From assembly GCF_055900595.2 (NCBI RefSeq), contig NZ_CM148325.1: a DNA stretch of 64,000 bases; one strand, written 5' to 3'. Below are positions 9,001-12,000 of the stretch, in pieces; the first letter of the stretch is position 1; each line of letters begins with the position of its first letter. The position numbers were made by a program.

Positions 9001-12000
9001 CTGCGCTAATCGCAAACCAAACGTCGCTGGCTGGCTAATAAACAGACTTTATTTAATTACTCTATTTCACCCTTATTTATCCCTTTAATCTCCTTTTCCA
9101 AAATGCCTGACAGTTCGCAGAATGAGATTTCGATCATGCAGTTAGTGCGATCCTGAACTAAGGTTTTCTGATACTTGAATACCGTTTTGTTCGGTTTCGC
9201 CCAAGGAGAATGATTGATGAAAGCCACCGCCCCTCCTCGCCCGCAAAAAATAGCGTTAATTCCCGCCTGCGTTTTGTTGTGTTTCGCTGCGCTAGCGGTG
9301 CAGGCAGAAGAAACGCCAGTAACGCCACAGCCGCCTGATATTTTGTTAGGGCCGCTGTTTAACGATGTGCAAAACGCCAAACTTTTTCCGGACCAAAAGA
9401 CCTTTGCTGATGCCGTGCCGAACAGCGATCCGCTAATGATCCTTGCAGATTATCGAATGCAGCAAAACCAGAGCGGCTTTGATCTGCGCCATTTCGTTAA
9501 CGTCAATTTCACTCTGCCGAAAGAGGGAGAGAAATATGTTCCGCCAGAAGGGCAGTCGCTGCGCGAACATATTGACGGACTTTGGCCTGTATTAACGCGT
9601 TCTACCGAAAACACCGAAAAATGGGATTCTCTGTTACCGCTGCCGGAACCTTATGTCGTGCCGGGCGGACGTTTTCGCGAGGTATATTACTGGGACAGTT
9701 ACTTCACCATGTTAGGGCTTGCCGAAAGCGGCCACTGGGATAAAGTTGCGGATATGGTGGCCAATTTTGCTCATGAAATAGACACTTACAGGCATATTCC
9801 CAACGGCAGCCGCAGTTACTATTTAAGCCGCTCGCAACCGCCATTCTTTGCCCTGATGGTAGAATTACTGGCGCAGCATGAAGGCGATGCCGCGTTGAAG
9901 CAATACCTGCCGCAAATGCAAAAAGAATATGCTTACTGGATGGACGGTGTTGAAAACCTGCAAGCCGGACAACAGGAAAAACGCGTTGTAAAACTTCAGG
10001 ATGGTACCCTTCTCAACCGCTACTGGGACGATCGCGATACGCCACGGCCAGAGTCATGGGTGGAAGATATTGCCACTGCCAAAAGCAATCCGAATCGACC
10101 TGCCACTGAAATTTACCGCGACCTGCGCTCTGCCGCTGCGTCTGGCTGGGATTTCAGCTCGCGCTGGATGGACAATCCGCAGCAGTTAAATACCTTACGC
10201 ACCACCAGCATCGTACCGGTCGATCTGAATAGCCTGATGTTCAAAATGGAAAAAATCCTTGCCCGCGCCAGCAAAGCTGCCGGAGATAACGCGATGGCAA
10301 ACCAGTACGAAACGCTGGCGAATGCCCGTCAAAAAGGGATCGAAAAATATCTGTGGAACGATCAACAAGGCTGGTATGCCGATTACGACCTGAAAAGTCA
10401 TAAAGTGCGCAATCAGTTAACCGCTGCCGCCCTGTTCCCGCTGTACGTCAATGCGGCAGCGAAAGATCGCGCCAGCAAAATGGCGACGGCGACGAAAACA
10501 CATCTGCTGCAACCAGGCGGCCTGAACACCACGTCGGTGAAAAGTGGGCAACAATGGGATGCGCCAAACGGCTGGGCACCGTTGCAGTGGGTCGCGACAG
10601 AAGGATTACAAAACTACGGGCAAAAAGAGGTGGCGATGGACATTAGCTGGCACTTCCTGACCAATGTTCAGCACACCTATGACCGGGAGAAAAAGCTGGT
10701 GGAAAAATATGATGTCAGCACCACCGGAACAGGGGGCGGCGGTGGCGAATATCCATTACAGGATGGCTTTGGCTGGACCAATGGCGTGACGCTGAAAATG
10801 CTGGATTTGATCTGCCCGAAAGAGCAACCGTGTGACAATGTTCCGGCGACGCGTCCACTCAGTGAATCAACAACACAGCCGGTAAAACAAAATGAGGCGG
10901 AACCTACGCCTTAACTTTACTGTATATCGAGCAATGCCATTACGTGCATAAAATTGGCATTGCTCTTTCTTCATCACGAAATACCACTCTTTCTACAGTC
11001 TATGCCTTTATTTTCTTTTATTAGGGAAGATTTTAATTTTATTTTATCAACTTGTTAATCATTACACCTCTATTTATATTTTCCCCCACTCCCCATTCTC
11101 CCTGACAATTTTTTTGTGGAACAAAGTGTTATTTAAGAAACAAGCAAATCATTCTGTCTCTTTAGACAAATTTTGACATCAAACATGATCTTTTTCGCTA
11201 TATGTGTAAATATATTTTGGTTTTAATTATCAGGATATGACTTATGTCACTAACCAGACGGAGGTTTACACAGATTCTTGCGTCGACATTGTTCCTGCAT
11301 CATCTGCCGTCCTTTGCACAATCAGTCAAATTCTGGGCCTCACTGACGCTTCCCGAAGCCCAAAACATTACACGCATCGTCTGGGGGCAGTCGAAGTTTC
11401 CAAAGGGTATTCTTCGCTGCTTCAGGGGCCTAATCAAATGGGCGGAGCCATTAATATCCCCCCAGAAGCCAACGAAATCTCTGGAAGCAAGTCTGGGATA
11501 TCGCCAGGGATGGAGCCGTAGCCAGGACAATGCCTACGATATGCATGCTTCTCGCACAATATTGATGCCGATACCATTCAAAATCAGAACAGCGGCACGG
11601 TGGATTACAGCGGTCTGGATGCCGGTATTAAGGGGAAAATCAGCAATATACTGGATGTAGGATTGAGCTACGCCCTGATCCACGCTGACGCCAAACGCAA
11701 AGACATCGGCAAGATAACCGATCTGCCAACGCAGACAATGACCGCATGGATGACTCTCAAACCGTGGGAGCCGTTAAGCGTAACGCTGTCGGAAGAGGCG
11801 CGTTCCTCCAGCTACAGCAACAGTGACGGTTCACAAAAAGCCGCCGGTTTTGCGGTGACCCACATTCGAGCCGATTACACCTTAGGTCATGGCTTCAGCG
11901 TTAATGCGTCGGTCAATAACCTGTTTGATACCAAATATGCCTACAGTGAAGGGTTTATTGAAGAAGGTCGCAATTTCTGGGCAGGTGTCGAATATACGTT

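Follow-up and report, generated by a model that had tools for sequence, protein, structure and literature searches.

A divergent trehalase leader in an Escherichia chromosomal segment that very probably belongs to cryptic clade I

The window analysed here is a stretch of 64,000 nucleotides from contig NZ_CM148325.1 of the NCBI RefSeq assembly GCF_055900595.2. The gene at 9217–10914 is treA, in the chromosomal setting normal for it: dhaK, dhaL and dhaM precede it, and ymgE and ycgR follow. The open reading frame encodes 565 amino acids followed by a stop codon and starts with the ATG at 9217; an alternative in-frame TTG is situated at 9214, one codon 5' of this ATG. The features referred to below are the following.

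1–64000, no strand assigned: ycgV-dhaRKLM-treA-...-dadXA-fadR-nhaB-umuDC-hlyE-minCDE-...-bluFR-icd-rluE-purB-phoP segment, in reverse orientation relative to the MG1655 coordinates
640–3507: ycgV autotransporter, intact, 955 amino acids, 97.5% identical to K-12
9217–9306, plus strand: predicted treA signal peptide, clade I allele, 30 codons (from translation)
9307–10914, plus strand: mature periplasmic trehalase TreA, with a nearly invariant core (residues 31–540) and a variable tail (residues 541–565)
16870–17268, minus strand: open reading frame of about 125 amino acids between cvrA and dadX, with no Pfam match
17388–18800: leucine-rich-repeat protein of 466–470 amino acids, between cvrA and dadX (region 16758–18727)
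50025–51500, minus strand: trkG potassium-transporter gene on the island beside icd (in K-12, the Rac prophage carries trkG)

Translation of 9217–9306 (ATG AAA GCC ACC ... GTG CAG GCA) gives a leader of 30 residues, and the putative mature protein starts directly downstream of it (a mature start of 10 residues, read further over 15 residues). The leader consists of a basic n-region with Lys-2, Arg-8 and Lys-11 and a hydrophobic run of 17 residues, and it ends with a valine at −3 and an alanine at −1 that are followed by two glutamates, a VQA-EE cleavage context. The product has the features expected of a periplasmic trehalase, namely a GH37 domain, full length and, as judged by eye with the −3/−1 rule, a predicted Sec-type leader with small residues at these two positions. 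The Pfam family PF01204 (Trehalase) is on record for a protein identical to the TreA of the window, matching genes carry the PGAP label 'treA: alpha,alpha-trehalase', and the exact protein is present in 113 blocks of public assemblies.

The K-12 reference was the region 1,170,000–1,258,000 of MG1655 (NC_000913.3), in which TreA is b1197 (L001, 30680–32377, minus strand). The two trehalases (GH37; PF01204) are both full-length proteins of 565 residues that align without gaps, they have the same predicted mature N terminus, and 544 of the 565 residues (96.3%) are identical. They differ in a lineage-specific leader and C-terminal tail, where 18 of the 21 changes are situated. In the leader, 7 of 30 residues are unlike those of MG1655 (positions 3, 4, 7, 12, 19, 20 and 27), and in the last 25 residues there are 11 differences, all within 548–562. 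The mature core between them has only three (at 192, 198 and 420), so that 507 of its 510 residues are identical. This clustering is not due to chance (Fisher's exact test: leader against core, p = 8.5e-8; tail against core, p = 6.5e-14). The first-pass annotation had stated that the TreA signal peptide departs from that of K-12 at several positions. Judged against the MG1655 sequence, this was right in substance.

The comparison was extended to 49 proteins that K-12 and the window have in common. Most housekeeping proteins are 97–100% identical to K-12, and most enzymes 97–99.8%. FadR, NhaB, MinD, MinE, NudJ, YcgN, YmgC and YmgD are 100% identical, and DadA, Icd, MnmA, MinC, PhoP, YcgB, HlyE, UmuC and UmuD are more than 99% identical. 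The statement of the annotation that several N termini diverge holds beyond the seven differences in TreA: within the first 30 residues there are 3 in PliG, 3 in YmgG, 4 in YcgZ, 5 in YmgI, 6 in IraM and 18 in RluE. The differences in RluE (58382–59032) fall in an N-terminal basic tail, and the rest of that protein is about 97% identical to K-12.

At the nucleotide level, the window and the syntenic MG1655 region are 95.76% identical over 47,986 aligned bases. In bins of 2 kb the identity ranges from 92 to 98.8%, and no bin lies above 98.8%. The source is therefore not MG1655, in agreement with the annotation, which had named more than 99.5% identity across the core genes as the value that would refute this; both the overall value and the highest bin lie below it. 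The region of MG1655 between 1.19 and 1.256 Mb (phoP ... ycgV) shares about 50 genes with the window, in the same order, but the window lacks its prophage e14, ycgH and ycgY. Conversely, about 25% of the window is without a counterpart in the syntenic MG1655 region.

To place the window among sequenced strains, it was split into three chunks of 21 kb and searched against 5,426 complete RefSeq genomes labelled "E. coli". All three chunks were matched at 98% identity or more by 18 complete genomes. A 19th genome, R32_14_1F, reaches at least 98% on chunks two and three, and it shares the treA leader allele. Identities within the matching group are 98.1–99.9%, whereas the remaining complete genomes reach at most 95.8%, 96.2% and 96.5% in the three chunks. 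Among the 5,426 complete genomes, none lies between 96.5 and 98.1% in any chunk.

A scan of a GTDB-based collection of species representatives with TreA as the probe recovered five; the representatives of E. coli, E. fergusonii and E. marmotae were not among them. Identity to the window is 86.3% for E. albertii, 90.2% for E. whittamii, 90.5% for Escherichia sp. E1V33, 91.0% for a record labelled E. coli SCPM-O-B-8794 and 94.5% for Escherichia sp. MOD1-EC7003, so that none of the five exceeds 95%. The window is thus not from E. albertii, a species with which the annotation had proposed a comparison, nor from E. whittamii or the lineages that E1V33 and SCPM-O-B-8794 represent. The 91.0% identity of SCPM-O-B-8794 extends across 16.8 kb and is similar to the values of E. 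whittamii and E1V33; this record titled 'Escherichia coli' probably carries the wrong name and belongs to another Escherichia species. MOD1-EC7003 is an intermediate lineage, with a treA that is 96.2% identical to that of the window. The records of these two representatives are NZ_JAATUR010000031.1 and NZ_PTRE01000079.1.

Escherichia cryptic clade I (C-I) is known as a sister lineage of E. coli sensu stricto, or as a lineage at the level of a subspecies, and Shigella lies within E. coli sensu stricto. Two strains of the matching group, EC42405 (NZ_CP043414.1) and 2013C-4282 (NZ_CP027579.1), are listed as cryptic clade I in a figure legend and in Tables S1 and S2 of Okuno et al. (2023, BMC Biol, PMC10100065). 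Among the close strains, these are the only two documented there as C-I; R32_14_1F, WL297, E200086 and GCA_029451115 are absent from the supplementary tables of that study. In that study, the average nucleotide identity (ANI) among C-I genomes exceeds 98.3%, and that of C-I to eight E. coli phylogroup references, MG1655 among them, exceeds 95.9% (PMC10100065), a value still higher than the 95% that separates species. Over the 64 kb of the window, the corresponding values are 98.1–99.2% per 21-kb chunk to EC42405 and 2013C-4282 and 99.43% overall to the genome Z0117EC0005, as against the 95.76% to MG1655, which is close to the 96% or so expected for E. coli sensu stricto and is set apart by the discrete gap described above.

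Because the window groups with two published C-I strains, and because its local identities agree with the ANI figures of Okuno et al., we consider it very probable that the window is a chromosomal segment of a C-I strain and that the divergence of its treA leader is ordinary. The assignment rests on identity bands over 64 kb; the published C-I marker gene, an EsCd1-10290c_1484 homologue described as situated on a genomic island (PMC10100065), and the loci of the Clermont clade PCR (aes/chuA) are outside the window. The proposal of a different Escherichia lineage thus stands, with the lineage now named: at least 98% identity to the matching group with its published clade I strains, and at most 96.5% to any other complete genome. 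That the source is neither Shigella nor E. fergusonii we infer only indirectly, from the identity of at least 98% to documented C-I strains and of at most 96.5% to the E. coli sensu stricto genomes searched.

The closest complete genome is Z0117EC0005 (NZ_CP098223.1), from a dog in South Korea, with the above 99.43% over all 64 kb. It forms a near-clonal set with E200086, E400634, E500002, E600003, 100117, 100248 and AST85. The draft GCA_029451115.1 is closer still: across the first 21 kb, only one of 20,914 bases is mismatched (99.995%). The C-I genomes EC42405, 2013C-4282 and Z0117EC0005 resemble the window in their 98.1–99.9% identity, full synteny and accessory islands, but none of the complete genomes searched is identical to it. 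Z0117EC0005 also differs from the window in that its ycgV is annotated as frameshifted and its AIDA-type autotransporter is intact, the reverse of what is found in the window.

Mismatches to Z0117EC0005 are unevenly distributed. Only 36 fall between 24 and 64 kb, whereas there are dense patches at 2.0–2.5, 8–11.5 and 14–21 kb with up to 67 mismatches per 500 bp. Within the last of these patches, at 16–19 kb, EC42405 and RMDEC465 match the window at about 100%. The mosaic indicates homologous recombination within clade I, with treA inside one of the patches, and local identity values are affected by it.

Such visible recombination, with treA in the dense patch at 8–11.5 kb, could suggest that a clade I donor passed the treA region, or even all 64 kb, to an ordinary E. 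coli sensu stricto (or Shigella). We regard this as very improbable. The best matches within the recombinant patches are the C-I genomes EC42405 and RMDEC465, at 99–100%, rather than E. coli sensu stricto, and the divergence from MG1655 is not confined to treA but occurs in every 2-kb bin over the whole 64 kb.

The gene content of the window argues in the same direction. The trkG island, the leucine-rich-repeat protein, the AIDA autotransporter and the insertion between icd and rluE are common only to the C-I group, and 80% or more of the 43–64 kb chunk is covered in only 18 genomes. A clade I genome accounts for this far more parsimoniously than an import of 64 kb that would carry clade I accessory islands on either side. 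A local import of treA into an ordinary E. coli was accordingly rejected, on the divergence across all 64 kb and on the clade I-specific accessory islands, and membership of C-I is the reading retained here.

All accessory differences from K-12 either recur in other clade I genomes or amount to a simple deletion or frameshift when compared with these. In the gap between treA and ymgE (10915–11981), only scraps are left of a cluster that encodes an iron ABC transporter, a SAM-methyltransferase, ModD and a TonB-dependent receptor. This iron-uptake cluster is intact beside treA in RMDEC465 and nearly intact in EC42405, where the TonB-dependent receptor is frameshifted, whereas in the window it is reduced to remnants by deletion. 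Compared with RMDEC465, the window lacks 4.67 kb at 11381/11382 and a further stretch of about 1 kb near 11551. The K-12 gene at this site is ycgY. Between cvrA and dadX, where the window carries the leucine-rich-repeat gene and the short open reading frame listed above, MG1655 contains only a partial IS1414 scrap and ymgM.

The AIDA-repeat autotransporter gene (35000–39678, minus strand) is split into open reading frames of 1427 and 198 amino acids, as compared with an intact 1558 amino acids in Z0117EC0005. The frameshift is situated at about 35638–35639 and consists of two additional base pairs in a poly-C run (CCCCC versus CCC). It is either a real slipped-strand inactivation, resembling phase variation, or an assembly error. 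In K-12, only the ycgI remnant of this gene is kept.

The island that carries trkG extends over 47871–54100 beside icd, at the position of the K-12 prophage e14. It also holds a transposase scrap, a strongly diverged iraM (72% amino acid identity) and a hypothetical protein of 457 amino acids for which no convincing Pfam match was found. The insertion between icd and rluE (55662–58415, 2.75 kb) contains a gene of the STM2901 family, a DUF1493 gene and an element of the IS3 family.

The treA leader shows the same division between genomes as the window does as a whole. For the 141 nucleotides at 9190–9330, the identity is 100% in 14 complete genomes and 99.3% in 3 more, all from the matching group. 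In the other approximately 5,300 genomes the identity is at most 90.8%, and the distribution is bimodal with no intermediates among the 5,319 genomes that have the region. For the whole of treA, 15 of the complete "E. coli" genomes reach at least 98.7%, and the next best value is 96.5%. The TreA of two clade I genomes, Z0117EC0005 and EC42405, was translated, and in both the leader is identical to that of the window. Beyond the clade, leader and tail also vary in the TreA of E. whittamii, E. albertii, E1V33 and MOD1-EC7003, and the motif EET.V.PQ.PDILLG is conserved in all four.

Against MG1655, the Nei-Gojobori estimates of dN/dS are 0.54 (leader), 0.024 (core) and 0.66 (tail), the last being a rough value from an ungapped codon alignment in which small indels may inflate it. 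All three values are below 1. The substitutions in the leader are either conservative (I/M, V/I, L/F, A/S) or are situated in the n-region without loss of charge, and the residues at −3 and −1 as well as the mature N terminus are the same in both proteins.

These features fit relaxed constraint on a leader that is cleaved off and drift in a flexible tail, with no sign of a new function. The gap between the K-12 leader and that of the window would then be ordinary lineage divergence, at about 4% per nucleotide, with amino acid changes building up where constraint is weak, in the C-terminal tail and in a Sec signal peptide that is cleaved off, while strong purifying selection would keep the catalytic GH37 core. 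The leader still has what the Sec pathway and signal peptidase I need, a basic n-region, a hydrophobic h-region and VQA-EE. As far as can be read from the sequence, TreA is most likely exported and cleaved as in K-12 to yield the same 10-residue mature N terminus, and export and cleavage are predicted to be unchanged because the leader keeps Lys-2, Arg-8, Lys-11, the hydrophobic core and the valine and alanine at −3 and −1.

The strong clustering of the changes (7 of 30 residues in the leader as compared with 3 of 510 in the core) might instead reflect adaptive, diversifying change that alters trehalase export, processing or regulation in clade I. The 141-nucleotide region is 9–15% divergent from E. 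coli sensu stricto, about 2–3 times the average of the window, and the allele is nearly invariant inside C-I, as the 14 genomes at 100% and the 3 at 99.3% attest. Set against this, the dN/dS of 0.54 and the conservative or charge-neutral nature of the substitutions led us to reject positive selection in this part of the protein. All other Escherichia lineages examined vary freely here as well, the cleavage site and mature N terminus are unchanged, and the pattern is what signal peptides are expected to show. Adaptive change is therefore an explanation to which we give hardly any credence, and relaxed constraint remains the preferred account of the leader.

A related idea is that the 5' end of treA, comprising the leader and the upstream intergenic sequence, is a lineage-fixed allele that alters the export or expression of TreA in clade I, and that it is at minimum a compact, single-amplicon marker of C-I. 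Taken as a whole we consider this proposal unlikely. The 141-nucleotide leader region could serve as a simple typing target that separates C-I from the other complete genomes.

Clade I is already well described, and the finding, while correct, is ordinary and already known. Its main value lies in the context that it provides for other findings in the window. Comparisons with K-12 will show a nucleotide divergence of about 4% everywhere, together with several accessory islands, and these are normal for clade I rather than anomalies. Databases routinely list C-I strains, which include pathogens of the STEC and ETEC types, under the name "E. coli" (Okuno et al. 2023, PMC10100065), so that recognising the lineage is of some practical use.
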